From Candidatus Poribacteria bacterium (GTDB taxonomy: Bacteria > Poribacteria > WGA-4E > WGA-3G), in NCBI GenBank assembly GCA_965116815.1, contig OZ220722.1:149962-213961 (forward strand): a stretch of 64,000 nucleotides of DNA, read 5' to 3'. Shown here in pieces: positions 4,853-55,841 of this stretch. Both the position numbers and the translations under genes were made by a program. Under the pieces are notes generated by a model. That model was not told where the DNA came from. It did no database searches and saw only the letters and a program-made list of their open reading frames with translations. How positions within the stretch are numbered: position 1 is the stretch's first letter; every line of letters begins with the position of its first letter.

Positions 4853-4856
4853 GGAA

Positions 4857-4953
4857 TAGTTGTCAGTTATCGGTTACCGGTTATCAGTTAAAGAGGTTTG
4901 ATTACATCAGACACCTCTTAACTAACAACTAACAACTGACAACTGATAACTAA
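4857..4953. repeat. Family A palindromic element
   Basis: TAGTTGTCAGTTATCGGTTACCGGTTATCAGTTAAAGAGG - loop - CCTCTTAACTAACAACTAACAACTGACAACTGATAACTA. Confidence 0.75.
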
Positions 4954-4961
4954 TAAAGAAA

Positions 4962-16169: not shown

Positions 16170-19156
<2,987 letters not shown>

Positions 19157-19183
19157 GTAATATCATTCTACCGATTTACCCTC

Positions 19184-19200
19184 TCTATACAATTGTCAAA
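19184..19200 (-). promoter_or_regulatory. 5' half of the 23S processing stem
   Basis: TCTATACAATTGTCAAA, complementary to 16124-16140. Confidence 0.7.
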
Positions 19201-19228
19201 GAACAATGCCTATTTGTTATATAGGCGA

Positions 19229-19301: not shown

Positions 19302-19317
19302 ATGTGGCATGCTCTTA

Positions 19318-19347
19318 AGTATACCACAATCACGATATGAATGTCAA
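19318..19347 (-). promoter_or_regulatory. rrn promoter copy 1 (proximal)
   Basis: Minus strand: AAAAATAAAT-TTGACA (19347-19342), 18 nt, TATACT (19323-19318), with TGTGG just upstream of the -10. Confidence 0.6.
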
Positions 19348-19365
19348 ATTTATTTTTCAAAAATC

Positions 19366-19432
19366 GACCAGGGAGGAATCGCACCTCGCCTTCGGCTTTT
19401 CAAACCGAAACTCCTAATTTGAGCAACTGGTC
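19366..19432 (-). ncRNA. Degenerate tRNA-like element (Phe-type GAA anticodon loop), 67 nt
   Basis: GACCAGTTGCTCAAATTAGGAGTTTCGGTTTGAAAAGCCGAAGGCGAGGTGCGATTCCTCCCTGGTC. 6-bp acceptor, 3-bp D stem, 5-bp anticodon stem with loop TTGAAAA, 4-bp T stem with loop TGCGATT (non-canonical). Confidence 0.35.
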
Positions 19433-21748: not shown

Positions 21749-21845
21749 AGGACTTACGCAAAAATGAAAGGTTGGAATTGCACACGCTCCACGCGCCACT
21801 GGCGAGGTTCCAAACCTCGCCAGCAAAGGAAGCTGCGTAAGTCCT
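21749..21845. repeat. Family B nested-hairpin element
   Basis: AGGACTTACGCA ... CTGGCGAGGTTCCAAACCTCGCCAG ... TGCGTAAGTCCT. Second copy of 12492-12581. Confidence 0.75.
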
Positions 21846-28931: not shown

Positions 28932-28946
28932 AATTTATGTCCATTA

Positions 28947-29717
28947 TTACGGAAGTGAGGCTTCAATTTCCTCAGAAGTCAACAACCGAAATTTGCTTGT
29001 TCCCCGTTGCGTGGTTTCCAAAACGCCTGCTTCAATCTCGCCATCTTCCTGTGCAGCATTGACAATCTCATGCATCTGCTCAGTATCCATCTGAGTGTCT
29101 TCCAATTCAGCATCTTCTGGTTCCCGCGAACTCAATTCTTTACCGACCGCCCACGTTTCTAAACCCAATTGGAGTGCAGCAGTTAAATCCCTGTCGGTAT
29201 CAGTAGACGCAGTAGCGAGATAGTTTTGCATTCCCTCTTCAATCGCTCCTGTACCACCGATAACAGTGGAGGTCGTGTCTGTCCGAACATTTCCGTCATA
29301 GTTGATACAGGTAAAACGGTTTTTCTCAGAAGTGCCGCCGAGTTCGGCAAGCAACATTTTAATAATATACGCCTCACCGACAATGGACTCAAACGCCTGC
29401 TTGAAGGTGTGCGCCAAGACAAAGTTCGTGAGTCGGTGTAAATTTACATCTTCGGTGGCGTTCTGAAAACCTTGGACGCTGGCGGTATCAGTGACAAGCA
29501 TCCGAAGACGCTCAATATCAGCGGGGTGCCCGATTGCGGAGAGGGCAATCCGATCATGTACCTCAAAAATTTTGCGTTGTCCTCTGCCGATAGTAAGGAG
29601 CACCATGCCTTCATTATAAGTAAGCCCTACAACAGGACTCCCAACCCGCAGTTGGTCTTCAATGTAATCTCGTCTGTCCTGGATCGCTTCTATCCAGCGA
29701 TACGGTTCATCTCGCAT
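28947..29717 (-). CDS. prcA: Proteasome alpha subunit
   Basis: 256-aa ORF. Bacterial PrcA-like N-terminus and core (GSPVVGLTYNEGMVLLT...HDRIALSAIGH). Sits in the proteasome cluster. Confidence 0.75.
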   Translation of the reverse strand: MRDEPYRWIEAIQDRRDYIEDQLRVGSPVVGLTYNEGMVLLTIGRGQRKIFEVHDRIALSAIGHPADIERLRMLVTDTASVQGFQNATEDVNLHRLTNFVLAHTFKQAFESIVGEAYIIKMLLAELGGTSEKNRFTCINYDGNVRTDTTSTVIGGTGAIEEGMQNYLATASTDTDRDLTAALQLGLETWAVGKELSSREPEDAELEDTQMDTEQMHEIVNAAQEDGEIEAGVLETTQRGTSKFRLLTSEEIEASLP

Positions 29718-29743
29718 TTCTTAATTATGTGCCTCGCAAGAGG

Positions 29744-29862
29744 GTTGTCGGTTATCGGTACGGTTTTTCTACGAAAAACCTTTCGGTTATCGGTTAAGAG
29801 GAAGACTTGATGATTTAGGTTTCCGTCTTAACCGACAACTGACAACTGATGACTGACAACCG
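29744..29862. repeat. Family A palindromic element
   Basis: GTTGTCGGTTATCGGTA...TTTCGGTTATCGGTTAAGAGG - loop - GTCTTAACCGACAACTGACAACTGATGACTGACAACCG. Abuts the TAA stop (29863-29865) of the Kelch gene. Confidence 0.7.
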
Positions 29863-30987
29863 TTATTGTGTCATTTTAATCGTTGCCCACGTTTTCAGAA
29901 GTTTTCCTATTGGAGTGACGAGCCCACGAACTATTGCCGTGTCATAAACCTCGACATTTACAAGTGGATCTTCATTACCGCCGCTATTTCCACCAAGGAT
30001 ATAGATTTGCCTATCTATTGGCTGAGCCCCATGACCATTTTTACCGGTCGGCATGTCCGGTGCCTGAGTCCAACGATCGGTTTTGGGATCGGAAATTTCA
30101 ATCGTTGGTAGATATAAGTAGGGTCCCTTGTCTCTGAAACCACCACCTATTACATATATTTTTCCATCCACAACACTCGCCGTGTGAAGTGATTTTGGGG
30201 TAGGCATCTCTGCTACATCCTTCCAACGATTTGTTTTTGGATCGAAAACCTCAACACTGGAAAGAAAAGGACCTGGATGATTTGGAATTTGGGGCCATCC
30301 GGTTCCGCCCATGACGTAAATCTTTCCATCCATAACACTGACTGCAGCACCAGCGCGAATATGGTTCATATTTCTGGCTTTCGCCCATGTGTCAGTGACC
30401 GGGTCATATACCTCCACGGTTTTTAGCCGCGTCGGTTTCCCCTCCTTAAAATTAATGGTTGCTGATCCACCGATGGCATATATTTTCCCGTCCACAACAC
30501 AGGTGGGAGCCATTCTGGGCGTTGGCATATCTGCTCTCTGTATCCATGTGTCTGTAACTGGATCGTACATTTCCACGGTTGGAAGTTCTTTAGGCTCCCA
30601 CACTCTAACTTTTCTCCACTCACGCCTAACCTGATCAAAGACATCAATCTCAAATCTCTTCAGTTCCGTTCCACCAATAGCGTAGATTTTTCCGTCCACA
30701 ACCGAAACAGATACACCCGTGCGGGCTGTCGGCATATCTGCTTTTCGTTCCCATGTATCGGTTTTAGGGTCGTACATTTCGACCGTTGAGAGGGACAAGT
30801 TTCCAAACCCCTCAATCTCGCCTCCTATGGCGTATATCTTTCCATTTACAATACATGTACCAAAACCGGAGCGCTGTGTCGGCATATCTGCTTTCCGCGT
30901 CCAATTTTCTTCGGCGGCAAGATTGACAACGTTGATAACCAACAACGCACATAAAATCAGGATTCCGAAGGTCAAATGAGTTTTCAC
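29863..30987 (-). CDS. Secreted Kelch-repeat beta-propeller protein with divergent TWxxIK tail
   Basis: Signal peptide MKTHLTFGILILCALLVINVVNLAAE. At least 6 repeats of DGKIYAIGG...VEMYDPxTDTW. C-terminus PIGKLLKTWATIKMTQ. Confidence 0.8.
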   Translation of the reverse strand: MKTHLTFGILILCALLVINVVNLAAEENWTRKADMPTQRSGFGTCIVNGKIYAIGGEIEGFGNLSLSTVEMYDPKTDTWERKADMPTARTGVSVSVVDGKIYAIGGTELKRFEIDVFDQVRREWRKVRVWEPKELPTVEMYDPVTDTWIQRADMPTPRMAPTCVVDGKIYAIGGSATINFKEGKPTRLKTVEVYDPVTDTWAKARNMNHIRAGAAVSVMDGKIYVMGGTGWPQIPNHPGPFLSSVEVFDPKTNRWKDVAEMPTPKSLHTASVVDGKIYVIGGGFRDKGPYLYLPTIEISDPKTDRWTQAPDMPTGKNGHGAQPIDRQIYILGGNSGGNEDPLVNVEVYDTAIVRGLVTPIGKLLKTWATIKMTQ

Positions 30988-31000
30988 GGTTTACCTCTAT

Positions 31001-31879
31001 TTAAGGTTGTGCCTCAGCGTAACATGCTTCCAATTCATCATCGGAAATATCTTCAACACCGGTGCGTGTCACAGTCTTGACATTTGGAAAAATTTGTGCT
31101 CTGGCGTTGTAACCGCTTGTCGCTGCATCATACTCGCTCGCGGTGTCTAAAAGCCGCAAGATCGTGATAGTTGCCTGTCGTTCATCCATCTCCTGTAAGG
31201 GTGTATCCCCGAACCGAGAGAGGTAACGTAACACACCCCGGATCCAGATTGAGCCAGATCCGGTTGTGGCAAAATTGACGTTCTCAAAGTGCGCACCGAG
31301 TGCATCATAAAAGAAAATCTTTCCGCCATTCTCTTCATCGGCGGCACTCAAGTCATACAATGCAAAGATCGGGATAACGCCCCCGATGCCTTGAAGTGCC
31401 ATGGGCAGATTGTCTCGAATGAGCCGGGATAGCATTCGGAGTTTACCTTCAAGGCTCAACTCTTGAAGTTGACTGCGGCGAAAGTATTGGAAAGAATGCT
31501 CCAATACTCTGGCAATTTCATAAGCAATTGCAGGCGAACCTGAAATGGCAAGCACAGAATGCTTATCAATCTGCAAGACCTTTTCCGCTCGGTCATAGAT
31601 GACAGAGGTACCAGCAGTCGCACGCCGGTCACCTGCGATCATGACACCATCCGCGTAACGAACAGCCACAACAGTGGTGCTGTGCGCTATCTCAACATCG
31701 ACACCGTGTTGTCCGGTTTCGGATGGCAAGTCTATCTTCAAGGAGTAGTTGGCGTGTTTCAAAAGGTTGAGGAAGTCGCCTTTATGATTCATGACTTCCT
31801 TGTACGGGTTAGCTCCCCTAACCCTCTCTTCATGCTCCACGCCCATTCGATTCAGGAAATTGCCCTTATCGTTCATCAC
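31001..31879 (-). CDS. prcB: Proteasome beta subunit with long propeptide
   Basis: Predicted mature N-terminus at ...IAHS/TTVVAVRYADGVMIAGDRRATAG. The ATG overlaps the modifier stop (ATGA). An alternative start at 31792 is possible. Confidence 0.8.
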   Translation of the reverse strand: MMNDKGNFLNRMGVEHEERVRGANPYKEVMNHKGDFLNLLKHANYSLKIDLPSETGQHGVDVEIAHSTTVVAVRYADGVMIAGDRRATAGTSVIYDRAEKVLQIDKHSVLAISGSPAIAYEIARVLEHSFQYFRRSQLQELSLEGKLRMLSRLIRDNLPMALQGIGGVIPIFALYDLSAADEENGGKIFFYDALGAHFENVNFATTGSGSIWIRGVLRYLSRFGDTPLQEMDERQATITILRLLDTASEYDAATSGYNARAQIFPNVKTVTRTGVEDISDDELEACYAEAQP

Positions 31880-32073
31880 TCCCCCGTTCTTTGGCGGTAG
31901 CGTCGGGATTGGTCCTTGTCAACACGACGCATGCGTTTGAGCAGCTCTTGCGTATCAGGTCGACTGACCTTCTGGCGCTTTGGCCCTTCATTATCGCCAT
32001 CGCCATCACCGGGTCCGATGGGTTTTGTGTCTTTCTGTTTACGTTCGAGCTGAGCAATCATCTTGGCTGCCAT
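31876..32073 (-). CDS. pup: Pup-like small protein modifier (UBact-type), 65 aa
   Basis: AAGGAG upstream. Between dop and prcB as in actinobacterial pup loci. Disordered, charged sequence ending ...LLKRMRRVDKDQSRRYRQRTGE. Confidence 0.7.
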   Translation of the reverse strand: MAAKMIAQLERKQKDTKPIGPGDGDGDNEGPKRQKVSRPDTQELLKRMRRVDKDQSRRYRQRTGE

Positions 32074-32090
32074 TCTGTTTCTCCTTTTTA

Positions 32091-32238
32091 GTAGTTTTCA
32101 GTTTTCAGAAGGAATAGTTATCAGTACTCAGTTATAAGTTATCAGTTAAGAGGTCTCTTATGGCAGTAACACTAAAAGTAACCAACACAAGTGTTTAACT
32201 GAAAACCGAAAGCGCAGCGTACTGACAACTGATAACTA
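32091..32238. repeat. Family A palindromic element
   Basis: GTAGTTTTCAGTTTTCAG...AGTTATCAGTACTCAGTTATAAGTTATCAGTTAAGAGG ... TTTAACTGAAAACCGAAAG...ACTGACAACTGATAACTA. The terminal CTA is the TAG stop of dop. Confidence 0.7.
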
Positions 32239-33765
32239 TTCCTGACGCAATTTTTCAATAAGAGTTTCAACAGTCGGCGATTGATCTAACGCCTCGTTAT
32301 ATTGATGGGCAATTTCCGCATCGGCGAGGGCATCCAGATTGACTTCGCGGGTGCGTCCGTTTACAGTGAAGGTGATACTATCCCATTGAATCGCTTTTAT
32401 AGAACTACTGAATCGATCAACAGCGCGTCCACGAAAGTACGCCCGCGTGCCAGCAGGCGGGTTATGAAGTGCAGCATCAATCTGCTCATCCGTAACAACA
32501 CGCCGCATCGGAATCCCATAGTATAGCCCTTCGTCTAAGGCAATGTTATGGTATTCCAAATCCAAACTTTGGAGCCACGCGTCATCCCACGCAAGCCCCT
32601 CTTCTTCAATAAAGGTTTCAAGCAACCACTTTTTCGCAACCCAATCGAGTCGGTCAATGAGAGACATCGGATCCGCCTCAAGCGCATTGAGAGTATCCTC
32701 CCATTCGGTGAGCACCCAGTCAGTTTCAGGTAGGGACGAGGCAACCTCGCCCCTACTGAGATATTTCTGTGCGAGTGCGAGGTACTCACGTTGATGGTCA
32801 ATGGCGGACATCGTTTTCCCCTCTTCCGTCATCACCATCCATCGATACGTCTGGTCATGCGACACAGTCTTAATGGTATCAATCGGGTTGACAAGTGTTA
32901 GACTCGCTGGAATTCTCCGTTGTTCAATCAAAGTAATAACGAGCGCTGTCGTACCGACTTTAAGTGCCGTTGCGTACTCGGACATATTCGCATCACCTGC
33001 AATACCGTGCAACCTACGGTATTTAGACGCATCCGCGTGCGGCTCATCTCGCGTGTTAACAATGGGACGATTGTGCATCGTATCCACGCTCGCCTCGACG
33101 TGAAAGAAATCGGATCGCTGGGATAGTTGGTAATGTCCCGGTGTTGCGAGTCCTGCTTCCGTTTCAATACCGAGTTTCCCTGCGCCAGCAAAGATTTGGC
33201 GCGTGATAAAAAACGGCATGATGCCCTGTTTGAGAGTCTCAAACGGAACTTCGCGTGCCATCAGGTAATTATCGTGACAACCGTAACTATGCCCGTGAAA
33301 ATCGGTATTATTCTTGTATAAAAGCACCCGCTTCCCGAGTTTCTCGCTTCGGGTTTCGGCACACCGCTGAAGGATACGTTCCCCTGCCTTATCGTGCGCG
33401 ACGAGATCAAACAGACGACTGCACTCAGGTGTGGAATACTCCGGATGTGCATGGTCGTTGTAGAGCCGCGCGCCGTTGACAAGGATGTGATCGCTCTTGA
33501 TTTCAGCAAAAGAGAGCCGCTCTTTCGTATTACGTTCCCGGTCGCGTTCCTCTTCCTCTTTTTCATCAGGATGATTTGAAAGTGAATTCGCGCGAAAGCC
33601 GCGTTCATCTCGAAATGGGTCTTCCCCGCGGTAGTCCCAGACCGGTCGAAAATCCTCCTGGCGATAACTTTTTATTAACTCAATCGACTGCTTAACGGCA
33701 TCAATGTGCGCTTCATTTTCGAGCGTTATTCCATATTCAGTTTCGATTCCAAAAAGTCTTTCCAT
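32236..33765 (-). CDS. dop: Depupylase/deamidase, Dop-type
   Basis: GIETEYG, WDYRGEDPFRDERGF, about 40-aa acidic insertion (Dop loop), NGARLYNDHAHPEYSTPEC, YGCHDNYL. Confidence 0.8.
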   Translation of the reverse strand: MERLFGIETEYGITLENEAHIDAVKQSIELIKSYRQEDFRPVWDYRGEDPFRDERGFRANSLSNHPDEKEEEERDRERNTKERLSFAEIKSDHILVNGARLYNDHAHPEYSTPECSRLFDLVAHDKAGERILQRCAETRSEKLGKRVLLYKNNTDFHGHSYGCHDNYLMAREVPFETLKQGIMPFFITRQIFAGAGKLGIETEAGLATPGHYQLSQRSDFFHVEASVDTMHNRPIVNTRDEPHADASKYRRLHGIAGDANMSEYATALKVGTTALVITLIEQRRIPASLTLVNPIDTIKTVSHDQTYRWMVMTEEGKTMSAIDHQREYLALAQKYLSRGEVASSLPETDWVLTEWEDTLNALEADPMSLIDRLDWVAKKWLLETFIEEEGLAWDDAWLQSLDLEYHNIALDEGLYYGIPMRRVVTDEQIDAALHNPPAGTRAYFRGRAVDRFSSSIKAIQWDSITFTVNGRTREVNLDALADAEIAHQYNEALDQSPTVETLIEKLRQE

Positions 33766-33766
33766 T

Positions 33767-33910
33767 TGGCTATCAGCCCCCAGCCATCAGTGGTCGGTTT
33801 CCGTCAACCATCAGCAAGAGGGAACTTGCGGCAATAACGCAACTGATAACAGCCACAGCGTTTCTTTGCTGATAGCCGAGAACCGGCAGCCATTCTTGCC
33901 GACGGCTACT
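33767..33910. repeat. Family A-variant palindromic element (GGCTATCAGC type)
   Basis: GGCTATCAGCCCCCAGCCATCAGTGG...AAGAGGG...GCTGATAGCCGAGAACCGGCAGCC...GCCGACGGCTAC. Fills the mpa-dop gap. Confidence 0.6.
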
Positions 33911-33933
33911 TCTCTGACGATTGATAATATCTC

Positions 33934-35760
33934 CTAAATGACACGCGAGCCAGACGCTCTGCGCCGCTCCTGTTTCTCAGCTTTGATAGGCGTAACTTTA
34001 ACAACATTCGCCGGATCGTAATCAAGGAGCTTGAGCCAATCCTCTGTTGCTTCAGTTGGTGGGAAAATTTCGCTTTCTTGATACTCCGCGGCAAGCGCAT
34101 TCAATAGGTCTGCGCGCGAGATGCCACTCTCTTTTTCCGGATTCTCAATTGCACGCTTGAGCGCGGACTCCTTCGCGCGCTGGACAATCGACTCAATGAT
34201 AGCACCGCTGCACAGATGTCCGCGATAGAGAATATCCCGTCTTCCACTCCTGAGAGAAACCTCAAGGAAACGGTTGTCTTCGTCCTCACGGAACATTTCA
34301 TCAACCACCTGTTCGATTAAATCAGTCACCGCCTTCTCAGTAGGGATAACTTCCGGTGGCGTTTCACCCGCTACCGGTGCCGCTTTGCTCTCTCCATCAA
34401 GCAACAACTCTGAAGCAATCGGCAGCTCAGGAGTGAAATAGATGCGGAAGATGTCTTTCGCAGCGTCTGCATCTGGACGCGTCACTTTAATTTTTCTATC
34501 AATGCGCCCCGGACGCAAGATAGCAGGGTCAATCAGGTCCGGACGGTTCGTCGCGAGGATAATAACAACATCCTGTAAAGATTCAATACCGTCCATCTCT
34601 GCACAGAACATCGGGACGAGCGTATTAGAGATGCTATGAGACCGGAGTGCACGCCGTGTCCCCAATATCGACTCCGCCTCATCTATAAAGACAAATGCAA
34701 GCTTGCCATCTTCCTTTTTCTCACGGGCAATCTGAAAAATCTCTCGGACTTTCCGCTCAGATTCACCGAGCCACATATTAAGAATCTCAGGTCCCTTAAT
34801 GTGTAGGAAACACCCCTCAACATCTTCTCCGCTCTCCTTTTGGAGCCGCTGCGTTAAGTTGTAAGCGGTTGCCTTGCCGATGAGTGTCTTGCCACATCCG
34901 GGAGGACCGTGAAGGAGGAAACCCTTCGGTGCACTATATTGGAACTGTTCAAAAAGTTTAGGATGTAGGATCGGGAGTTCAATCGTATCTTTAATGCGTT
35001 GGATCGTATCGTCGAGTCCTCCGACCTTCGACCACGGTATGTTCGGTACCGCCTCAAGGGCGTATACATCTGTCTCTGTGACAGGGAGATGTTCGACCGC
35101 GACCCGGAAGTTAGAGTCAATCCGAACTTCATCACCAGGTTTTAGTTTCGCATCTGCAAGGTCTGCGGAGCGTTCAAGGATGACCGATTGTGCGTTCGGT
35201 TCTTGACCGATGCGGAGCCGTCCATCTGGCAAAAGATCGGCTATCTTTGCGATAGGACCGGCATCGTTGTATCCGAGTTCACCAACAACCACAAAAGCGT
35301 CATTCAAGAGCACACTGAATCCTTTTTTAAGCTCGGCTGTCTTTAACTCTGGATCAATGTTAGCGTAGTATTCGGATCCACCGACGATAACGCGGGCGAT
35401 GTCCTCCTTGGGCAATCCGAGCAACGTTCCGATGCGATTCGCAGGGGCGGTCAACTTTTCAATCTGCGCCTCCATTTCTGCGTGGATACGGAGTGCTTCC
35501 TGCTGAATCGCGTGGATCCTTTCCTGAAATTCACCTTCATCGCTAAGGATAGAGCGACGAAGCTCAAGGAGCCAGCGACGGCGACGATCATCTACCGGGG
35601 TCTCAGCAATAATATGGTGAATCAGTTGCAACGAATAGCCAGAACTCGTTTCCTCCTCTTCAGGGGCGAGCTCTTCTTCGAGTTCCTCGTCATCTTCAAT
35701 AAACAGGTCATTCCCATCAGGGGCTGCGCCAATATCTCTACGATTCTTCTTATCGTACAT
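33934..35760 (-). CDS. mpa: Proteasome-associated AAA+ ATPase (Mpa/ARC-type)
   Basis: N-terminal coiled coil. OB-like region. Walker A GPPGCGKT. Walker B VFIDEAE. C-terminus ...RRRASGSRVI. Confidence 0.8.
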   Translation of the reverse strand: MYDKKNRRDIGAAPDGNDLFIEDDEELEEELAPEEEETSSGYSLQLIHHIIAETPVDDRRRRWLLELRRSILSDEGEFQERIHAIQQEALRIHAEMEAQIEKLTAPANRIGTLLGLPKEDIARVIVGGSEYYANIDPELKTAELKKGFSVLLNDAFVVVGELGYNDAGPIAKIADLLPDGRLRIGQEPNAQSVILERSADLADAKLKPGDEVRIDSNFRVAVEHLPVTETDVYALEAVPNIPWSKVGGLDDTIQRIKDTIELPILHPKLFEQFQYSAPKGFLLHGPPGCGKTLIGKATAYNLTQRLQKESGEDVEGCFLHIKGPEILNMWLGESERKVREIFQIAREKKEDGKLAFVFIDEAESILGTRRALRSHSISNTLVPMFCAEMDGIESLQDVVIILATNRPDLIDPAILRPGRIDRKIKVTRPDADAAKDIFRIYFTPELPIASELLLDGESKAAPVAGETPPEVIPTEKAVTDLIEQVVDEMFREDEDNRFLEVSLRSGRRDILYRGHLCSGAIIESIVQRAKESALKRAIENPEKESGISRADLLNALAAEYQESEIFPPTEATEDWLKLLDYDPANVVKVTPIKAEKQERRRASGSRVI

Positions 35761-36439: not shown

Positions 36440-38206
36440 ATGACACTGATATCTTTATTAGAACATTCAATCGAGCACTACGGCAGTAAACCCGCATTGG
36501 CACATAAACCGAAAGGTGGCACCTATCAGGACATCTCCTACGCCGAACTCGGCGAATCGGTGCACGCTTTCAGTAAAGGCATCAATGCCTTAGGCGTGCA
36601 AAAGGATGATCGGATCGCGATCCTATCAGAGAATCGTCCGGAATGGGCGATCACGGACTTTGCTACCCTCAAAGCCGGTGGGGTAACCGTCCCCATGTTT
36701 TCAACGCTAACCGCGGCGCAGGTCGGCTATATCCTAAAAGATTCCGGATCAAAAATTATTTGTGTGTCTACAAGCAAACAGTTGGAGAAGGTAACCGCCA
36801 TCCGAGACGAGGTGCCGACACTTGAACAGGTAATCATCTTTGATCCGATTGAAGGTGAAACGCCAGAAGATGTTATTCAATTTGAAGCAGTGTGTGAATT
36901 GGAAGGCGAGGAAACAGACGCTGCTGCCACTGAAGACGACATCGCAACAATTATCTACACTTCGGGGACAACAGGAGATCCGAAGGGAGTTATGCTGACG
37001 CACGCTAATTTCATTTTCAATTTACAGGCGTGCAAATCGCTTATTGATGTCAGCGATGCAGATGTATTGTTATCGTTCCTACCGTTATCGCACGTATTTG
37101 AACGGCTCGGTGGGCATTATGTGCCGCTCTTCTCCGGTGCAAAGATAGCTTATGCGGAGAGTACGTTTACGGTTGCACAGAATATGGGAGAGGTCGCTCC
37201 GACGGTAATGCTCAGTGTACCGAGACTTTACGAAACAATGCACGATAGAATCCTACGTGCTGTGCAAGAGGGATCACCGCTCAAACAGAAAATTTTCCAT
37301 TGGGGTGTTTCAGTCGGGTCGGCAGTCAGTTCAGCGATTCAGCAAGGAAAAAAGCCGTCTGCAATTTTACAATTACAACAGAACATCGCCAACAAACTGG
37401 TCTTTGCGAAATTGAAAGCAGCAACCGGCGGAAGGCTACGTTTTTTCGTCTCTGGCGGTGCGGCGTTACCACAAGCAATTGCCGAATTTTTCCACGCGGC
37501 GGGGATCCTGATTTTGGAAGGCTATGGACTAACGGAGACCTCACCCGTTATTAGCATGAACCATCCGGAGGGTTGGAAGTTCGGGACGGTTGGGATGCCT
37601 GTCCCGGGCATAGAGGTACAAATCGCCGAAGACGGAGAGATTTTAACTCGCGGTCCGCACGTTATGAAAGGCTATTTCAATAACGAATCCGCAACAGCAG
37701 AGGTTATTGACGGAGAGAATTGGTTTCACACGGGCGACATCGGCATCATTGATGCGGATGGATTTGTCAAGATTACTGACAGAAAGAAAAACATCATCGT
37801 GCTTTCCAACGGTAAGAACGTTGCCCCGCAACCGATAGAGAGTGAGTTGGTGCAAAGTCCTTTCATTAACCAGATTCTGTTGGTGGGCAACGAACGCAAG
37901 AATCTCGCTGCGCTGATTGTCCCCAATTTTGATGCACTCAAGACGTGGGCAGCGGAAAACGGTGTTGCCACGGATGATCTCTCAACGATGCTCAAAACAC
38001 GTGAGGTGCAACAACTGATTCAAAGCGAAATCCGGAGTCGTTCGACCGATTTCGCTGACTTTGAACAGGTGCGACGGTTCACCCTGCTTGAGAAGGAATT
38101 CTCTCAAGAAGAAGATGAGATGACCCCTACGCTAAAGTTAAAGCGGAATGTTATCATAGCGCGATACGGGGATGCTATTGAGGAGATGTATCCAGAGGAT
38201 TCCTAA
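36440..38206 (+). CDS. fadD: Long-chain fatty-acid--CoA ligase (AMP-binding superfamily)
   Basis: Start at MTLISLLEHSIEHYG. AMP-binding motif IIYTSGTTGDPKGVMLTH. GYGLTETS. HTGDIG...TDRKKN. Confidence 0.8.
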   Translation: MTLISLLEHSIEHYGSKPALAHKPKGGTYQDISYAELGESVHAFSKGINALGVQKDDRIAILSENRPEWAITDFATLKAGGVTVPMFSTLTAAQVGYILKDSGSKIICVSTSKQLEKVTAIRDEVPTLEQVIIFDPIEGETPEDVIQFEAVCELEGEETDAAATEDDIATIIYTSGTTGDPKGVMLTHANFIFNLQACKSLIDVSDADVLLSFLPLSHVFERLGGHYVPLFSGAKIAYAESTFTVAQNMGEVAPTVMLSVPRLYETMHDRILRAVQEGSPLKQKIFHWGVSVGSAVSSAIQQGKKPSAILQLQQNIANKLVFAKLKAATGGRLRFFVSGGAALPQAIAEFFHAAGILILEGYGLTETSPVISMNHPEGWKFGTVGMPVPGIEVQIAEDGEILTRGPHVMKGYFNNESATAEVIDGENWFHTGDIGIIDADGFVKITDRKKNIIVLSNGKNVAPQPIESELVQSPFINQILLVGNERKNLAALIVPNFDALKTWAAENGVATDDLSTMLKTREVQQLIQSEIRSRSTDFADFEQVRRFTLLEKEFSQEEDEMTPTLKLKRNVIIARYGDAIEEMYPEDS

Positions 38207-38226
38207 GTACAAAGGAGCAACAGGAA

Positions 38227-39273
38227 TCAACGAGGTGACATTACAAGGAGTCCGTCTTTGATTATTTCAATTGTAGCAGGGGTTTCGCACATCGGTTCGC
38301 CGTCCGCATACAGTAGCATCGGCGTGTCAGTCTCAATTGTTAACGTACGGGTTTGGTGCATAGAGACAGCCGGATGTGATACATGCCCACCCCAAAAGAG
38401 CGTCACCATGAGTCGAAGCACCGTCAGAGAAGAAACTGGTCGGATAATACAGACATCGAAAAGCCCATCGTCGATTTGCGCATTCGGAACAATTTGAAAT
38501 CCACCACCGTATCGATTCGTGATCCCGGTCGCCGCGAGGAGGAGTGGTCCTTCGTGTGTACCAAAATCTCCTTCAAGTCGCACAAAAGGTGGTTCATAGT
38601 AGAACAACGTCTCGACCGCTGCGTAAGCGTAGGAAGCAGTCCCCGCAAACAACGGTGTTCCCTTCGCCGCGCGACGACTCACCTCCGTATCATATCCGCA
38701 GGTAGCAATGGTGGTGAAATAGTTGTCAGCCGTCGGCTCTCGGCTATCAGCGGAAAGAATTGTCGGTTGTCGGTTGTCAGTATCTGGTTGGAAGGCTGGA
38801 AGGCTGGAAGGATCGGTCCCCACTCTTCCGCCCTTCCTCTCTTCCATTCCAAGCTCCTGCTGATCGCTGACGGCTGACGGCTGACGGCTATTATAGCAGC
38901 GTCCTAAATCGACGCGGATAGGGGTGCCAGCTAAAAGAGTTGCTATCGCAGCGTCAGGTTTCAGTGGGATACCAACTGCTGCTGCAAAATCATTGCCGCG
39001 ACCACACGGAAGCACACCTAACGTTACATCCGGTGCCACCGCAATGCCGTTGACGACTTCGTGGAGTGTACCATCACCACCACAAGCAATCACCGACTGA
39101 ATGCCATTAGAAACGGCTTCTCGTGCGAAACGCATCGCATCCCCAGATGCTGCAGTGAACACCAATTGTCCTTGATATCCAGATTCAGTGAGGGCAGCAT
39201 AAGCCTGCTCAGCAATATTTCTTGCGTGCCCCTTACCGGAAATTGGGTTTGCGATGAGAATAAAATTTTTCAT
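38227..39273 (-). CDS. Diacylglycerol/lipid kinase family (YegS/BmrU-like) carrying a repeat-derived in-frame insertion
   Basis: ANPISGKG and CGGDGTLHEVVNG catalytic motifs. About 57 extra residues between VDLGRC and YFTTIATCGYD are encoded by a palindromic element. Confidence 0.75.
   Translation of the reverse strand: MKNFILIANPISGKGHARNIAEQAYAALTESGYQGQLVFTAASGDAMRFAREAVSNGIQSVIACGGDGTLHEVVNGIAVAPDVTLGVLPCGRGNDFAAAVGIPLKPDAAIATLLAGTPIRVDLGRCYNSRQPSAVSDQQELGMEERKGGRVGTDPSSLPAFQPDTDNRQPTILSADSREPTADNYFTTIATCGYDTEVSRRAAKGTPLFAGTASYAYAAVETLFYYEPPFVRLEGDFGTHEGPLLLAATGITNRYGGGFQIVPNAQIDDGLFDVCIIRPVSSLTVLRLMVTLFWGGHVSHPAVSMHQTRTLTIETDTPMLLYADGEPMCETPATIEIIKDGLLVMSPR
38721..38890. repeat. Palindromic element (A-variant arms + family C core) inside the lipid kinase CDS
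   Basis: Arms GTTGTCAGCCGTCGGCTCTCGGCTATCAGCGG / CCTGCTGATCGCTGACGGCTGACGGCTGACGGC. Core GGAAGGCTGGAAGGCTGGAAGGATCGGTCCCC...CTTCCATTCC. Confidence 0.7.
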
Positions 39274-39274
39274 T

Positions 39275-39399
39275 GGTTAACGGTTGTCGGTCATTAGAGA
39301 AATGGCTGTCAGCAATCAACCGTCAGCAGTCAGAAGAGATTTCTGTGGAATTGTGATAGTTTTACACACCACAGCCCGATAACTGAAAACTGATAACTA
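39275..39399. repeat. Family A palindromic element
   Basis: GGTTAACGGTTGTCGGTCATT...GGCTGTCAGCAATCAACCGTCAGCAGTCAGAAGAG...CCCGATAACTGAAAACTGATAACTA. The terminal CTA is the TAG stop of 39397-43548. Confidence 0.65.
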
Positions 39400-42300
39400 T
39401 TTTATCACCGCGATTTTGCCGACCTTTTTCTCCGTATCAAATTCAAGGACATAGATATAAACACCCGTCGATACATCCGCTGTGTTATTGCTCGTCAGCC
39501 ACCACTCCTTACGATTGTGGTCCTGATCGGTCACATCCAACGTTTCAAGCAACTCACCTCTTGCGGTGAAGAGCTGGATGCGTGTGCCGACGGGTAGCCG
39601 GTCAAATGTGATTGCACCTTTATCAGCCACATTCGGACGCACCGGATTTGGATAGACACGGACCTGTGTCAGATCTGACACTGCTACCTCCATAATACCG
39701 AGCGGTATTTCAAGGGGACGCGTAGAAGCACGGATAGGGTTTTCATCGATATCACTCACATTGGACACAGTAATTTCATACTGATCCGTTGTACCAATAA
39801 GTGATTGTCCGAAGTGCGCAAAAAGCCTCTCTGTATCAAACGCCAAGAGGGCACGTCTGCCCATCCGATCGCGAATGGCAGATGCCGGATTCACACCACC
39901 AATCCGCTTCTCGGCTCGCAAGACATATCGGTTCTCGTCACCGATTCCGAGGTCCATCCGTCGGTCAAATGTAACGAGCACCCAGAAATTTCCTTGCATG
40001 GAAACCTCACTGGGTATGGCAATCTGAGATTCAGGTTGCACCTCTCCGGGACGGTGATAAGCTGCACGGATTAATTGGGGCGGTTCTCGCGGTGTAGCAG
40101 AAACAGCCTCAGTGCGTCGTGTTTCTTTTCCCTCTTCATTTTTCGCCGTGATGGTGTACCAGTAGGTATTATCCTTTGTTACCTGTCTGTCTAAGAACCT
40201 TGTGACGGTGAGGTTTTCCGCGACCTTTTTATACTCGTCATTTGCGGGTTCCTGCGCCTTTTCACCCTGCGCGCGGTAGACAGTAAAGTAGAGGGTCTGC
40301 TGTAGGGGCGAGGTCACCTCGTCCCTACTCGCCTCGTCGTCCTGTTCAGCGTCCCATGTAACATGCACTGCCTTTTCCGTCAACGGCCTCGCTTCAAGGT
40401 TCCACGGCATGAGTGCATCAATAGCATCAGGATCCGTCGCGAAAATGGATTCAAAGCGATAAATTCCATCCTCAAGATTCACATAAAACTCGTCAAACCC
40501 GTTTTGATTGAGATCCACCGTAAAAAGAGCAGGCGTTTCCTCCATTCTCCGATGCCAAAGTGGCCGCAACGCCGCGCCATCCCACTGCATTACAAAGAGA
40601 TTCGGATAGGTAGCAACAACCAATACATTAGAACCATCACTATTCAGGTCTCCGATCGAGAGAGCGTTTCCTCTCAACCGGTGCGGCGCAATCGCGACAG
40701 CCGCATCGCGTGTTCCATCCGAGAGCATCGCGTAGCCGCTCGGTGTGTGCGTAAAAACAAAGAACTTCCAGATACGCGGTCCCGAAGGATTATCCGGTAG
40801 CGATAGTAAGCCACCAACGACAAACTCAGAAATACCATCACCCGTGAGATCGCCTACAGTAAATTGTGTGATGTCCTTAAGCGGAAGTTGTGTTTGCCAC
40901 TCAAGACGGAACGTATTACGGATGGAAGTAGATTCATAAACGAAAAGATCACCTTCGCTATCCGCTGCCACTAACTCCACGCTCCCATCACTATCAAAAT
41001 CGTCAATAGCGAAACGTTGCGCGAATACATTGGAACCGGCGGATTCGTTAACCAATACGGCACCCTCAAGATATGTGTTTGTTATACTGTCGTATTCAAA
41101 GATAAGGAGTCGATCGTTGTTGTTATCGGCACCGATAATCTCTTTTTGTTCATCTCGATCTAAATCAGCAATGACACCACCGGACAGAAAAGGTGTTTCC
41201 CAGATAATCTGGTGAGGGTACCCACCCGGCGTGGTGCTCTCAATGAGAAAGGTTCGCGCATCGTCGGTAGCGAGTACTTCGAGTAAACCGTCCCCGTCGG
41301 TATCATCCACCGCCCATGTAACGAATCCCTCTAAATTGGAAAGTCCATCTACAGTCTCAAGCGTATGTGCCAATTCATATCGATTGCCACTTGGAAGACT
41401 TTCATAGATGGCGAGGATAGCAGACTGCAACTCGGGGTCAACTATATCAGATGTAGATGGGCTTCCGACGATTTCCAGCAAACCGTCTCCGTCGAAATCC
41501 GCAGTAACACTTGCGATGTGGAGCGGTGGGATACTTATAGCCTTTTCAGTGAACCCGCTCGGCGAAATATGTCCACCGACAACGTCAATCGTATAAAACG
41601 CGCCGCCGTTATCCTGCCTTGCCTTGAGGTTCGTTGTATTCTCCGCCTCAACAAAAAACTGATAGGTGCCACTGTCGAAACCCAAAGAAAGGAAATGCTC
41701 TACACCGAGATCGGTTTTCTCAATAGGTGCGAAAGGCGAGAGACTGTCTTTCCGGCGGTAATAGAGTGTATTCCGGGTGACATCATCTGTCGCCCATGTG
41801 AAAATCGTAAGTCCTCGCTCACCGTAAAGGGTCTCTGTTGCAGTAAGAGAGATAATTTGGGGCGGGGTCCGGTCTATACTCAAAACAACTTGGTCGTGTA
41901 TCTGTTGTCCATCTGTGGCTGTCGCTGTTAAGCGGACGGTGTAGATGCCTTCTGGAACGGCTGTCGTATCCCAAACAACCAAGGTCTCACCGATTTTCTG
42001 TGTAGCGTCGGATTCGGTGAAAGGCGTAAACTCAACAGGGACCGTAGATGCTCCATAACTCATCTGCCAAGAGTGAAACTTATAGCCCCCGGCAGTCCCA
42101 ACGACGGTAATCGTATCCGCACCACCGCTATTGGTTTCAGGAGCGAGGATACGCGCTTGCAATGCACTACTTGCGAGTAGCGCGCGTTCGGCGTTCACAG
42201 TGCCTGCCCCGACAAATTTTTCATCCAATACATCACTATCCTCTTGGTAGACAGGGTCAGCGGTGTTAATGAGTATGTGCCGGACCTCTTCATGCGTCAG

Positions 42301-43549: not shown

Positions 43550-43657
43550 ATGGCTATCGGTTGTTGGCTATCGGCTGTCGGTTTTCAGCCATCAGCAAAG
43601 AGGCATTGTGATAGGACAGCATATTTGCATCTGCCACATACCGATTGCTGACCGTTC
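43550..43657. repeat. Family A-variant palindromic element
   Basis: ATGGCTATCGGTTGTTGGCTATCGGCTGTCGGTTTTCAGCCATCAGCAAAGAGG ... CCGATTGCTGACCGTTCAC. Confidence 0.55.
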
Positions 43658-47537: not shown

Positions 47538-48533
47538 CTACTTTAACATAAAGCGGACAGTCCCCGAAAACGTTTCATCAGGTGCCAGCACAATCACGCC
47601 TGCGGAAATCCCACGCGCTTCCAAGTTGATAGCATCTGTCGGGCAGGTATAAGGTTCAAAACAGATGGCATCCCTGTCCGGTGGTGTATAGACAACAAGC
47701 TCCCGAAATTGCGCGTCCGATTCCATCACCATACCGTATCCCGTATCCCTATTCTCAATAAGGCACCGACTTACATCGTCAACCAATTGAATGTCCGTGA
47801 AGACGTGGTCAAGCTTCAGTTTCGCGAAAGGTTGTCCATTCCGCAGGTCAAGTGTGCCAGCGACATCATGCTGAACACCCGTTGGCACGAGGACATCGTC
47901 CAATTCCCAATACTTAGCGGCAGGGACGGTAATCATCGCCTCAGCCGCATTCGCTTCGGTGCCGAGGTCTACACTGAAATAAGGGTGGATACCGAAGCCC
48001 GTCGGCATATTCCGATCACCTGTATTCTTGATAGCAATCCCCATCGTCAAAACGGCATCCTTGAGTGTATAGGTAATCTCAATTTTAAAAGGGAACGGAT
48101 ACTGGCGGCTGACATCGGGAAAATCTCGCGAATTGAGCGAGCACATCAAAGTTGCCCCGTTTTCATCGGCAACATGGCTTTCAACTTGATACGGTTGATT
48201 CAACAACAACCCGTGGATCGTTGTTGGGGATTCGGGTGCCTTGTCAAACTGATAAGTCTCATCCTCAAATTGCCACGTGCCGTTCCGGATTCGATTCGGA
48301 AAAGGGAACAGAATCGGATTGCCGTAAGCGGTTGGACGTTCCTCCAGCGTGGCGAGATCCGGCGGCGGATCTATCAAGTTCAACCAAGTGTCCCCATCTG
48401 CCACCCTGAACGCGTAACAGTTATTGCCGAGTGCAGGCACAATCTCGGCGACGGCTTTTCCATCTTGCTGTATATAGTAGACCTGAAAACTACTTACTGT
48501 TTCCACGGCTACTGAGTACGTTGTATGTGCCAT
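47538..48533 (-). CDS. Aldose 1-epimerase (galactose mutarotase-like) family protein
   Basis: GNPILFPFPNRIRNG, IHGLL and GFGIHPYF motifs. Start set at MAHTTYSV (GGAGAG upstream). Alternative upstream starts at 48641 or 48656 would add a hydrophobic leader. Confidence 0.65.
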   Translation of the reverse strand: MAHTTYSVAVETVSSFQVYYIQQDGKAVAEIVPALGNNCYAFRVADGDTWLNLIDPPPDLATLEERPTAYGNPILFPFPNRIRNGTWQFEDETYQFDKAPESPTTIHGLLLNQPYQVESHVADENGATLMCSLNSRDFPDVSRQYPFPFKIEITYTLKDAVLTMGIAIKNTGDRNMPTGFGIHPYFSVDLGTEANAAEAMITVPAAKYWELDDVLVPTGVQHDVAGTLDLRNGQPFAKLKLDHVFTDIQLVDDVSRCLIENRDTGYGMVMESDAQFRELVVYTPPDRDAICFEPYTCPTDAINLEARGISAGVIVLAPDETFSGTVRFMLK

Positions 48534-48705
48534 CGTTCTCTCTCCATCTGCCTTTGTGACTATCGTTAAAAGTAAGAAAAGAATTTTAATTATACCTTGC
48601 AGAGAAACGCCGTGAATTTGAAACTTTGACGTACCTTCCATACATCCCCCCTCCATTTTTCGGCGTACTCGCCCATAAGCGATCTGCTTCATTACCCGCT
48701 ATGGG

Positions 48706-48765
48706 TTTGGTTGGAAGGATGGGACCCCTTCCATGCTTCCGCTCTTCCATTCCTCTCCCTCTCTA
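48706..48765. repeat. Family C GGAAGG/CTTCC-rich hairpin element
   Basis: TTTGGTTGGAAGGATGGGACCCCTTCCATGCTTCCGCTCTTCCATTCCTCTCC. Related copies at about 38785-38850 and 61488-61561. Confidence 0.55.
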
Positions 48766-49380
48766 TTACGCTTTGGCGCACCAATGGATACCGCGCCGCA
48801 ACACCTCTCGGAAGTTCGGATTTGAAAAGGTGACATCATCGTGCCCACTCTGAAGGCAAAAGACACGGGAGTTGCCATATTCACGCGCCCATCCCAGTAC
48901 ATCCATGCTGTTCGGATGATCAACTGTCAGCAAGATGGAGCTATCATCGCCAGCGGATCCCATAGTATAGGTCTCGTCTCCCATCTCCCATTCGGCAAGC
49001 CCTTCCGTGATTGGATGGTTTGCATCAGCAACCTGCACTTGTAGTGTTTGACGAGGATAATATCCGAACTCGCCGCGCTCATCAATTCCGCACATTCCAG
49101 AATAGGCATCCCATTCTGGAAACGCCAAGATAGCATGATGCAGAATCACCATACCCTGCCCACGCGCTGTTAAACCGAGAATAGCCTCTGCTTGTGCATC
49201 TGTAGGATACGGACGGTGAAAATTGTAAAAGACAACGGTGTCGTAGTCCTGCAGGTCAGGGTCGTCCACAAAATCGTCCAGATCTCCTCGGACGAATTGA
49301 ACACCTTCCATACTCTCAAATACTGCGTCAAACTGTTTTTCCTGAAACCCGTGCTCACCAGTTACAACCGCAATTTTCAT
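48766..49380 (-). CDS. ThuA-like (trehalose utilisation) domain protein
   Basis: AAGGAG upstream of MKIAVVTGEHGF. ILHHAILAFPEWD. FCLQSGHDDVTFSNPNFREVLRRGIHW. Confidence 0.65.
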   Translation of the reverse strand: MKIAVVTGEHGFQEKQFDAVFESMEGVQFVRGDLDDFVDDPDLQDYDTVVFYNFHRPYPTDAQAEAILGLTARGQGMVILHHAILAFPEWDAYSGMCGIDERGEFGYYPRQTLQVQVADANHPITEGLAEWEMGDETYTMGSAGDDSSILLTVDHPNSMDVLGWAREYGNSRVFCLQSGHDDVTFSNPNFREVLRRGIHWCAKA

Positions 49381-49473
49381 AGTTCTTTCTCCTTTCAAAG
49401 TTTTATATTAACCACCATACACGGACAGGATTAGAAACCCAATCAGCGACAGGCATTTAAAAGAAAGAAATCT

Positions 49474-52912: not shown

Positions 52913-52928
52913 TAAAATCTCCTATAGA

Positions 52929-53135
52929 TTAGTTATCAGTTATCATATCATTTCTGATTGAAATTGTAGCATAAACTTTCAGTTTGGGTTTCCTTTGTAG
53001 CATAGACTGTTAGTCTGTGCCCTAAGGTGTGGTTAATGCGATATGAACTTTTAGACATGGTATCAGATGCAAGAAGTGTTTGATTCATCAAAAATCTCTT
53101 GTAACTGATAACCGATAACCGACAACTGATAACTA
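52929..53135. repeat. Family A element split by a 115-bp insertion
   Basis: Arms ATTAGTTATCAGTTATCA ... GATGCAAGAAGTGTTTGATTCATCAAAAATCTCTTGTAACTGATAACCGATAACCGACAACTGATAACTA. Insertion at 52946-53060 relative to the paralogous copy at 55751-55841. Confidence 0.65.
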
Positions 53136-55750: not shown

Positions 55751-55841
55751 TAGATTAGTTGTCAGTTATCAGCTGTAAGAAGTATTTGATTCATCAAAAA
55801 CCTCTTGTAACTGATAACTGATAACCGACAACTGACAACTA
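55751..55841. repeat. Family A palindromic element
   Basis: TAGATTAGTTGTCAGTTATCAGCTGTAAGAAG...CCTCTTGTAACTGATAACTGATAACCGACAACTGACAACTA. Confidence 0.7.

Follow-up and report, generated by a model that had tools for sequence, protein, structure and literature searches.

Within a stretch of 64,000 nucleotides from a Candidatus Poribacteria bacterium (assembly GCA_965116815.1, contig OZ220722.1, positions 149,962 to 213,961), referred to below as the window, the minus strand carries at 38227..39273 a gene encoding a 348-aa lipid kinase of the DgkB/YegS/BmrU type, whose open reading frame (ORF) hosts a palindromic DNA element. The whole composite element, delimited by inverted repeats, folding and codon mapping, occupies 175 nt of the minus strand (38718..38892) between the termini AATAG...CTATT, and its net contribution to the gene is an in-frame insert of 57 codons without a stop (N128-N184; 38722-38892, 171 nt). 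The original prediction, which had described a palindromic-family repeat inserted in an open frame of the kinase, is borne out at this level: its placement at 38721-38890 is right to within 3 nt, its count of about 57 extra residues agrees with the codon mapping, and the peptide that it quoted corresponds to residues 127-184.

According to Pfam, residues 4-126 of the kinase belong to DAGK_cat (PF00781, 1.9e-31) and residues 191-342 to YegS_C (PF19279, 4.4e-32), giving a two-domain architecture in which DAGK_cat is followed by the YegS_C β-sandwich. When the protein is matched to the PDB sequence of DgkB from S. aureus (2qv7), query residues 5-128 pair with chain residues 28-152 and query residues 183-336 with chain residues 152-305, leaving 129-182 without counterpart; about 55 residues are extra with respect to DgkB, and they lie exactly at the junction between the catalytic and the β-sandwich domains. 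The nucleotide-binding motif GGDGT (G65 G66 D67 G68 T69) is invariant in 55 orthologues, and the ratios of nonsynonymous to synonymous substitution (dN/dS) of the flanking domains, calculated between the window and eight insert-bearing orthologues, are 0.04-0.08, indicating strong purifying selection. This selection argues that the gene is functional, its lipid kinase activity being a prediction from sequence.

A model of the protein obtained with AlphaFold2 (AF2) from a deep alignment reaches a mean predicted local distance difference test score (pLDDT) of 89.5 and a predicted template-modelling (TM) score of 0.85, with both domains at 95-99; it replaced a model built from a shallow alignment of close orthologues only, which was uninformative (pLDDT 50). 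Its best Foldseek match is DgkB 2qv7 (E 8.7e-26, target-normalised TM 0.80), sphingosine kinase and YegS also being matched. Residues ~131-180 have a pLDDT of 46-53 and no secondary structure, and they are modelled between the strands 117-128 and 184-186. Thus, the suggestion that structure prediction might place the insert in a surface loop finds agreement in this model, where an unstructured loop joins two confident domains, the insert being most plausibly a disordered loop on the surface, at the point where the chain crosses from one domain to the other.

In the DNA, both the inverted arms and the GGAAGG core that had been described are present; instead of being one simple element, however, the insert combines outer arms, an inner 3′ arm and a separate GGAAGG hairpin in a nested mosaic. 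The outer inverted arms (38718-38751 / 38859-38892) are 34 nt long and 79% complementary, and an inner inverted pair lies at 38789-38810 / 38825-38846. The tandem units reported by Tandem Repeats Finder (TRF) are GCTGACG (x3.4, 38866-38889), TTGTCGG (x2.7), TGGAAGGC (x2.9) and CTCTTCCG (x2.9). Folded in mRNA sense, the 175 nt give a single long hairpin with an energy of -72.8 kcal/mol (z = -5.5), which is not equalled by any of 200 dinucleotide shuffles.

Read on the minus strand from the 5′ end of the mRNA, the element begins with an outer arm (38853..38892; TRF and mapping) composed of AATAG, three CCGTCAG units, CGATCAG and CAGGAGC, which encodes NSRQPSAVSDQQEL and has the heptamers in the "reverse", translatable orientation; the same arm type is found in the intergenic copies at 39305-39335 and 43551-43600. 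It is followed by the GGAAGG/CTTCC octamer hairpin core (38788..38852; TRF, inverted repeat and alignment), encoding LGMEERKGGRVGTDPSSLPAFQ, a small separate repeat of 8-nt units nested within the heptamer-armed element, which aligns with 48696-48768, with L015:2000-2075 and with the kinase cores of the orthologues L004, L005 and L008. The inner 3′ arm (38760..38787; TRF unit TTGTCGG and mapping), CCAGATACTGACAACCGACAACCGACAA in mRNA sense, encodes PDTDNRQPTI and, on comparison of the insert DNAs, is common to the orthologue L001, whose inner element is complete. The last part (38718..38759) comprises the 3′ half of the outer core and the outer 3′ arm, TTCTTTCCG CTGATAG CCGAGAG CCGACGG CTGACAA CTATT in mRNA sense, and encodes ILSADSREPTADN before the residues YF; here the heptamers have the "forward" orientation and are devoid of in-frame stops. 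The units of the kinase arms are GC-shifted variants of the heptamer (GCTGACG; TTGTCGG = CCGACAA; GCCGTCA / TGACGGC), and no GTAG-headed stem-loop was found in the window's own kinase insert. From the translation, the tryptic peptides spanning or inside the insert would be QPSAVSDQQELGMEER, VGTDPSSLPAFQPDTDNR, QPTILSADSR and EPTADNYFTTIATCGYDTEVSR.

Elsewhere in the window, about 10 intergenic members of a heptamer-armed palindromic family have one common architecture, in which an AATAGTT terminus is followed by tandem RTCRGTT heptamers, then by a hairpin core whose canonical form is TTAAGAGG-loop-CCTCTTAAC, and finally by tandem complementary units and an AACTATT terminus. The best-preserved canonical member, used as family reference and located by repeat search, TRF and folding (4855..4957, no strand assigned), reads AATAGTT(GTCAGTT..)n TTAAAGAGG-loop-CCTCTTAAC (AACTRAY)n AACTAAT, and repeat search and TRF place further copies near 2205-2330, 8799-9010, 9800-9869, 29745-29866, 32110-32243, 43551-43650, 52925-53140 and 55757-55846. 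TAACTGA is the TRF consensus (x4.7) at both 53102-53134 and 55808-55840, related units occurring at other positions, and arrays of at least three heptamers number eight in the window versus none in 50 mononucleotide shuffles. No Rfam family matches any of the window's repeats. The kinase copy and the intergenic copies possess terminal inverted repeats (AATAG...CTATT plus inverted arm arrays), a feature of miniature inverted-repeat transposable elements.

These elements occupy the spacers between genes. Six minus-strand genes (ends at 9869, 29863, 32236, 39397, 53136 and 55842) have their stops (TAG/TAA) in or beside the AATAG terminus, so that heptamer-armed elements touch or overlap gene 3′ ends and may have replaced the original stops, and the opposite arms adjoin start codons, namely the ATG of the kinase (39276), the ATG of the S8 peptidase (43551) and a start at 52912 (array 52925-52945). 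One member (39276..39404, no strand assigned; repeat search, folding and mapping) fills the spacer from the stop of the S8 peptidase gene, a TAG within the AATAG terminus, to the start codon of the kinase. The GGAAGG hairpin core also exists as a solo copy lacking heptamer arms (48706..48765, no strand assigned), located between the ORFs 47538..48692 and 48766..49398, and aligning with the kinase core through GGTTGGAAGG...CTTCC...CTCTTCCATTCC. That this intergenic copy shares the core had been stated correctly, but the similarity of the peptide that it would encode follows trivially from the common 8-nt repeats.

The distribution of the insert was analysed in a set of 80 species-representative genomes, with loci named L001 onward. 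In 25 of the 80 species (57-65% identity), the two domains are joined by a 10-aa linker of consensus YVRSEKGSEH, immediately followed by YFTTI; in 52 of the 80, as in the window, an insert of 18-64 aa occupies the same site. Two basal genomes (L068 and L076) contain unrelated extra sequence at the linker, and in L045 a linker of 10 aa is made of three heptamers (CGACAAC CGGCAAC CGGCAGC). Although the contig bearing L045 (JAPPLI010000029.1) is labelled as Gammaproteobacteria, the kinase that it encodes shares 73% identity with that of Poribacteria, and the contig is probably mis-binned. The inserts are in frame, with lengths multiple of three, and stop-free in all the insert-bearing representatives except L053, which comes from a long-read metagenome-assembled genome (MAG) that has frameshifts in the kinase flanks too. 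Among database proteins, the 120 closest (75-94% identical, 317-349 aa) all contain an insert of 29-62 aa, and most of the 150 distant homologues listed (33-46% identity, ~290-310 aa) match as two stretches, ~1-127 and 183-347. Taking into account the 10-aa linker of the insert-free species and the two-stretch distant matches, the segment is, on the evidence of these alignments, an insertion specific to one clade of sponge-symbiont Poribacteria. The repeat family is specific to the same clade, 23 heptamer arrays outside the kinase being present in 305 kb of flanks from the insert-bearing clade versus none in 148 kb from the insert-free clade. Repeat-free relatives sharing the segment, the finding that would have spoken against an insertion, are therefore not what these 25 species and 148 kb reveal.

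The insert is not, however, a single element acquired once, as had originally been supposed: the insertion is real, but the site is an old composite one with nested occupants, which holds at least six cores across 52 species representatives. At the DNA level these core types are: a canonical AAGAGG..CCTCTT core, with the peptides LKRDLLNENPLP, EGITSPENLLT and LKGGxVEPEPSLT; the GGAAGG octamer hairpin, present in the window and in L004, L005, L006, L008 and L053; a GTAG-headed hairpin resembling repetitive extragenic palindromic (REP) sequences, GTAGGAGCGAGTTCCACTCGCGAC, in L007, L035 and L044; a second GTAG-headed REP-like hairpin, GTAGGAGGGATCTCCGAATCCCGAAC, in L041, L046, L048 and L049, with three tandem 24-nt units in L043; a ATTGTGGCA...TGCCACAAT hairpin in L002; and a longer GTAG-containing core with the peptide ARNEMEGGSTE. 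Nesting is directly visible in L013 and L016, where an inner element ending in AACTATT lies within the loop of an outer element. The REP-like core hairpin of the orthologues (GTAGGAGGGATCTCCGAATCCCGAC) is found dispersed in both clades, at over 20 further sites, and therefore the occupants of the linker have been drawn from several genome-wide repeat families.

On a neighbour-joining tree built from the protein flanks, inserts of different core types are interspersed, and replacement is apparent even between close relatives. Thus, the window and L001, with a synonymous divergence (dS) of 0.32 in the flanks, have right-hand arms in common and different left halves and cores, and a protein 89% identical to that of the window (P0003) carries yet another core. 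The spacer between the S8 peptidase and kinase genes (39274-39396 in the window; compared in L001-L053) behaves likewise, with lengths of 0 to 199 nt in close species and with several different cores; thus, turnover is a property of the family and not of the kinase site. In L004, this spacer contains a unit of ~52 nt, GTACCACAATCTGTTAGATTGTG, in three tandem copies, and the shortest spacers (TAGTTATCA|ACCATTAACC) resemble one unit of each arm, as footprints or seeds would. The site is, consequently, an old, repeatedly remodelled "nest" of repeats and not one recent insertion.

A trace of selection on the insert is found at the positions where the heptamers would create stops. In all the kinase inserts, the Y of the YGA motif is C in 26 cases and T in none when in frame, as compared with 27 T and 37 C out of frame, and 39 T and 52 C in copies outside the kinase. 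Analogously, the X of XAA is T in 0 of 19 in-frame and 15 of 39 out-of-frame positions, copies outside the kinase having 49 T and 28 C. Out-of-frame positions therefore keep 38-42% T, versus 43% (YGA) and 59% (XAA) outside the kinase, and the exclusion of T in frame is significant (Fisher p = 2e-5 for YGA and 1e-3 for XAA). As T is excluded only in frame, the open frame is the only detectable constraint, as expected with ribosomes translating through the insert. In two metatranscriptome runs, both junctions are crossed by contigs (X3, 38176-38788 and 38764-38982; X6, 38524-38809), among which no joint skipping the insert was found. At the DNA level, four independent runs yielded contigs that cover the insert with no indels (X1, X2 and X5 with no differences, X4 with three substitutions), which excludes the assembly chimera that had been contemplated as a possible cause. 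From this body of results we infer the translation of the insert, its selective neutrality and the mechanisms of its remodelling.

Taken together, these results make it probable that small non-coding hairpin repeats, nested within one another as a mosaic, settled in the ~10-residue linker of the kinase in the ancestor of one Poribacteria clade and now form the insert. Its outer part would be a copy of the clade-wide spacer family, with AATAG, "reverse" heptamers, hairpin core, "forward" TAACTGA-type heptamers and CTATT, within which a second element, the GGAAGG/CTTCC octamer hairpin, would have settled. Transcription of the gene would include the element, whose translation would yield a disordered surface loop of low complexity, and selection may act on two things only, a length multiple of three and the change of stop-creating T to C where in frame (TAA, TGA). 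In every other respect the interior would behave like that of the intergenic copies, through slippage of 7-, 8- and 24-nt units, deletion, and the arrival of other hairpin repeats by nested insertion or recombination; such rebuilding would explain why the core at this codon position differs between close relatives.

It might be argued instead that the segment grew in situ as a microsatellite, from a heptamer seed produced by mutation and enlarged by slippage and local duplication with no participation of a mobile element, its likeness to the intergenic copies reflecting only a common mutational bias. Such growth would account for L045, where only three heptamers constitute a linker of ancestral length, and for the three tandem 24-nt units of L043; heptamers are the most slippage-prone class of bacterial repeats (Mrazek 2007, as cited in PMC4679880), and neither a target-site duplication nor a transposase has been found. 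This explanation is nevertheless unlikely, since the insert possesses the full architecture of the family (termini, opposed arm arrays and core hairpin), which is more than repeats, and since the GGAAGG, GTAG-headed and AAGAGG..CCTCTT cores occur in near-identical form elsewhere in the same genomes, which is beyond the reach of slippage.

A second possibility, which we judge very unlikely, is that of an adaptive hypervariable linker or contingency locus, in which the repeats would tune or switch the kinase, either by 7-nt phase variation or by offering a loop for localisation or interactions. The insert has indeed been retained through the whole radiation of the clade, with only L045 back to 10 aa, the coding 7-nt and 8-nt units are a classical substrate for phase variation, and the neighbouring S8 gene shows the same variability at the level of a loop. 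However, no variants of +/-7 nt appear in the contigs of seven runs, and all representatives but one (L053) are in frame, when a switch should leave many "off" alleles; each array contains only 3-4 units, neither the core sequence nor even the repeat family is conserved, covariation is nil, and there is no obvious reason for a cytoplasmic enzyme such as this to vary. As regards the proposal that the insert is absent from the protein, being removed at the RNA level, bypassed by the ribosome, or part of a pseudogene or an assembly artefact, the great stability of the hairpin in this genome (-72.8 kcal/mol) speaks in its favour, but all these variants were rejected as hardly credible, because splicing or bypass needs no open frame and yet the frame is open and stop-forming T is excluded only in frame, the RNA contigs keep the insert with no skipping joint, the flank dN/dS excludes a pseudogene, and the four DNA assemblies agree.

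Several observations weigh against the nested-mosaic explanation and must be set beside it. The original insertion event is beyond reconstruction, the insert-free clade being only ~60% identical and thus too diverged to provide a clean ancestral empty site. L045 is possibly a seed and not the footprint of a deletion, so that part of the growth could be repeat expansion in situ. A target-site duplication is not demonstrable for the kinase copy, where the TAT/CTAT present on both sides overlaps the termini; the intergenic copies extend the palindrome (AGGAATAG/CTATTCCT) without clear duplication. No transposase could be linked to the family, and a parent insertion sequence with matching ends is absent from the window, the sole transposon-related ORF (58486-60072, TnpB/Cas12f-like) being without such ends. 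This ORF, which contains HTH_OrfB_IS605 and a Cas12f1-like TNB domain, has no adjacent Y1 transposase, and no link to the repeats was seen. The hairpins of the orthologues range in strength from -7 to -73 kcal/mol, and the covariation term is 0 in an alignment of eight inserts of the same type, which lends no support to a selected RNA structure; the invariant positions of that alignment are TC.G / C.GA in each heptamer, and the secondary structure of the insert seems to be inherited from the element and not selected in place. Finally, the RNA evidence consists of assembled metatranscriptome contigs, in which DNA carry-over is possible, and the translation of the insert is a deduction and not a protein-level observation.

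Among the closest known counterparts are the Rickettsia palindromic elements (RPEs), selfish palindromic DNA found in frame in working genes (Ogata 2000, 2002, as cited in PMC10969869). As summarised in that source, they resemble the Poribacteria element in being dispersed hairpin repeats (~100-150 bp, compared with 175 nt here, z -5.5 and ~10 further copies in 64 kb) and in residing in frame in an unrelated metabolic gene of a host-associated bacterium, the protein remaining functional and the extra peptide occupying a permissive surface position. The differences are considerable: the arms of the Poribacteria element are tandem heptamer arrays, whereas an RPE is a unique palindrome; the phylum is different and no sequence relationship is shown; and the Poribacteria element combines several repeat families, nested in one another as a mosaic. 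Moreover, the kinase peptide is not conserved, its core being swapped among close relatives, whereas RPE peptides are described in the same summary as conserved within a family, and coding copies amount to one of ~12 in the window versus nearly half for some of the RPE families treated there. The parallel drawn in the original prediction therefore stands as to permissive in-frame insertion but does not extend to a large coding fraction (0 of 31 arrays outside the kinase); it is a functional parallel only.

Intragenic REPs are a second term of comparison. GTAG/CGTC-tagged REPs are usually extragenic and near ORF 3′ ends, but some lie within genes, where single copies, dimers or clusters encode 20-82 aa (PMC3733652), and different REPs are located at about the same site in recB of two Xanthomonas species (Di Nocera et al. 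2013, PMC3733652). The GTAG-headed cores of L007, L035, L041, L043, L044, L046, L048 and L049, and 27-nt palindromes in the S8 and Dop genes of the window, resemble them. By contrast, the kinase insert of the window has a heptamer-armed backbone lacking a GTAG-headed stem-loop, and no REP-associated tyrosine transposase (RAYT; PF01797-type protein) was seen among the 40 ORFs scanned in the 64-kb window.

As for the heptamer itself, TAACTGA direct repeats have been reported in Beggiatoaceae, Cyanobacteria and Bacteroidetes (MacGregor 2015, PMC4679880), as sets of 2-6 copies that are intergenic and often lie just upstream of starts or overlap stops (PMC4679880). Their forward orientation stops in all frames and the reverse one is translatable (LSVISYQ-type), and occasional copies in ORFs are mostly at protein peripheries (PMC4679880). 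The same unit is found in Poribacteria, which are not among the hosts reported in that work (PMC4679880), likewise mostly intergenic, adjoining starts or overlapping stops, with in-frame stops purged in the kinase copy. Nevertheless, only one indirect repeat was recorded among 170 sets (PMC4679880), whereas the arrays of the window are inverted pairs around a core hairpin with conserved AATAG/CTATT termini; the Poribacteria units are degenerate (YAACYGA, GCTGACG); and the coding copy in the kinase is internal, at a domain junction, and includes a forward arm cleared of stops.

Mosaic or nested hairpin repeats at one locus are reportedly known from the bacterial interspersed mosaic elements (BIMEs) of E. 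coli and from the small dispersed repeats and heptameric short tandemly repeated repetitive (STRR) sequences of Nostoc, which are said to have been described by Elhai et al. in 2008. Small elements at such loci can settle within other repeats and, now and then, within a conserved gene; BIMEs are extragenic. A literature search on palindromic repeats of Poribacteria returned only mentions of CRISPR and no paper on repeats of this phylum, and no description was found in the literature of repeats persisting with turnover at one codon position across >50 species. What is new with respect to the known systems is, thus, the inverted heptamer arrays with fixed termini, the nested mosaic of several families, the phylum, the persistence with rapid turnover and the non-conserved peptide.

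The kinase is not the only gene of the window in which repeats are read in frame. A 27-nt GTAG-headed palindrome (GTAGGGRCGAGG-NNN-CCTCGYCCCTAC) was located by repeat search in the S8/FG-GAP gene (40302..40328, minus strand, encoding SRDEVTSPLQ) and again in the gene for Dop, the Pup deamidase (32730..32756, minus strand, encoding SRGEVASSLP), in the same phase in these two unrelated genes; the four copies found in 600 kb are all inside long ORFs. The Dop copy occupies a loop without change of length relative to solved Dop structures (PDB 4b0r). The S8/FG-GAP copy, 1.4 kb from the kinase insert, is in a loop (VxVTW to FTVYRAxG, ~40290-40360) that is also length-variable among orthologues, with 11 aa in most insert-free species versus 12-44 aa in the repeat-rich clade; in L015 this loop contains a complete GGAAGG hairpin in frame (L015:2009-2057), and the half-core peptide PSNLPTFQP is kept in many species. 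A related palindrome lies within an acyl-CoA synthetase ORF of L003. As regards the heptamer arrays, leaving the kinase site aside, no long ORF contains any of the 31 counted in 600 kb, and the repeats read in frame in these other genes are small hairpins of different kinds; the array at 9832-9859 was rejected as a candidate for its position upstream of a likely start codon.

Some other features of the window should be mentioned. The Pup-proteasome cluster (27489-35760) includes genes for an AAA ATPase (33934-35760), Dop (32236-33765), two proteasome subunits (31001-31879 and 28947-29717) and PafA (27489-28931), with a Kelch-repeat protein gene (29863-30987) between the subunit genes, and heptamer-armed elements are present in two spacers of the cluster. 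Four tandem paralogues of the beta-lactamase family (PF00144; 51734-57158), which share 67-80% identity over long stretches, have heptamer-armed elements (52925-53140, 55757-55846) between some of them. The region 15991-19432 comprises genes for 23S rRNA (16168-19155, minus strand), 5S rRNA (15991-16107, minus strand) and two tRNAs (19229-19301 and 19365-19432); there is no adjacent 16S gene, a PD40-repeat protein gene coming next, and the 16S gene appears to be unlinked from 23S-5S. The palindrome CTGGCGAGGTTnnAACCTCGCCAG is found downstream of genes at 12526-12561, 21789-21824 and 62434-62469, a 30-nt tandem duplication lies at 62384-62444, and a perfect 22-nt inverted repeat pair is located at 62506-62527 / 62905-62926, 377 nt apart.

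In-frame copies are also encountered in other bacteria. The GACAACCGACAACCGACAAC array is present in at least 120 metagenome contigs from many environments, in which most long-ORF contexts are doubtful, the contigs being GC-rich. It is, nonetheless, in frame in several real genes confirmed by Pfam, those for ValRS (L174:136-3252), AlaRS (L126:7201-9000), TilS (L148:7042-8589), where it lies between the two domains, DsbD (L196:4652-6694), between DsbD_N and the membrane domain, and a GT4 glycosyltransferase (L157:7808-8950); L174 and L196 have the same inverted-arm architecture as the Poribacteria element. In view of these real-gene cases, in-frame residence of this class of elements recurs across bacteria, inter-domain linkers being favoured. 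A database search with an insert-type peptide returned only spurious ORFs of 36-77 aa, translated heptamer arrays from many phyla; the kinases themselves were not returned, so the search is uninformative on other coding copies. The claim that such insertion is rare outside Rickettsia was thus overstated, given the intragenic REPs (PMC3733652), the TAACTGA repeats in ORFs (PMC4679880) and the in-frame copies in neighbouring genes and in metagenomes.

A broader proposal can be put forward tentatively, and we hold it to be possible more than probable: the kinase linker would exemplify a class of heptamer-armed palindromic elements spread across phyla, in which copies already in place draw in other hairpin repeats, either by recombination or by insertion into the loops or arms of those copies, and form self-renewing in-frame "nests" in the inter-domain linkers and loops of conserved proteins, driven by a mobilising activity. 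Besides the kinase and the S8/FN3 loop, such cases may include ValRS, AlaRS and the linkers of TilS and DsbD in other bacteria. If this were true, "nests" would be a general and ongoing source of new disordered protein segments, and the mobilising activity may be common to Poribacteria, Cyanobacteria, Beggiatoaceae, Bacteroidetes and others.

For the Poribacteria themselves, the kinase site offers an unusually resolved view of selfish hairpin repeats becoming protein, with more than 50 species compared at one codon position and an insert-free sister clade representing the starting state. It also constitutes a natural experiment on the tolerance of a linker to insertions, on the speed at which repeat families turn over, and on whether resident repeats attract new ones. 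TAACTGA-type heptamers are extended to this phylum in the form of palindromic elements, an arrangement that may help to identify how they spread. Moreover, inserts of this kind inflate the diversity of protein families in the MAGs of sponge symbionts, where they can be mistaken for lineage-specific domains, and break short-read assemblies at coding sites.

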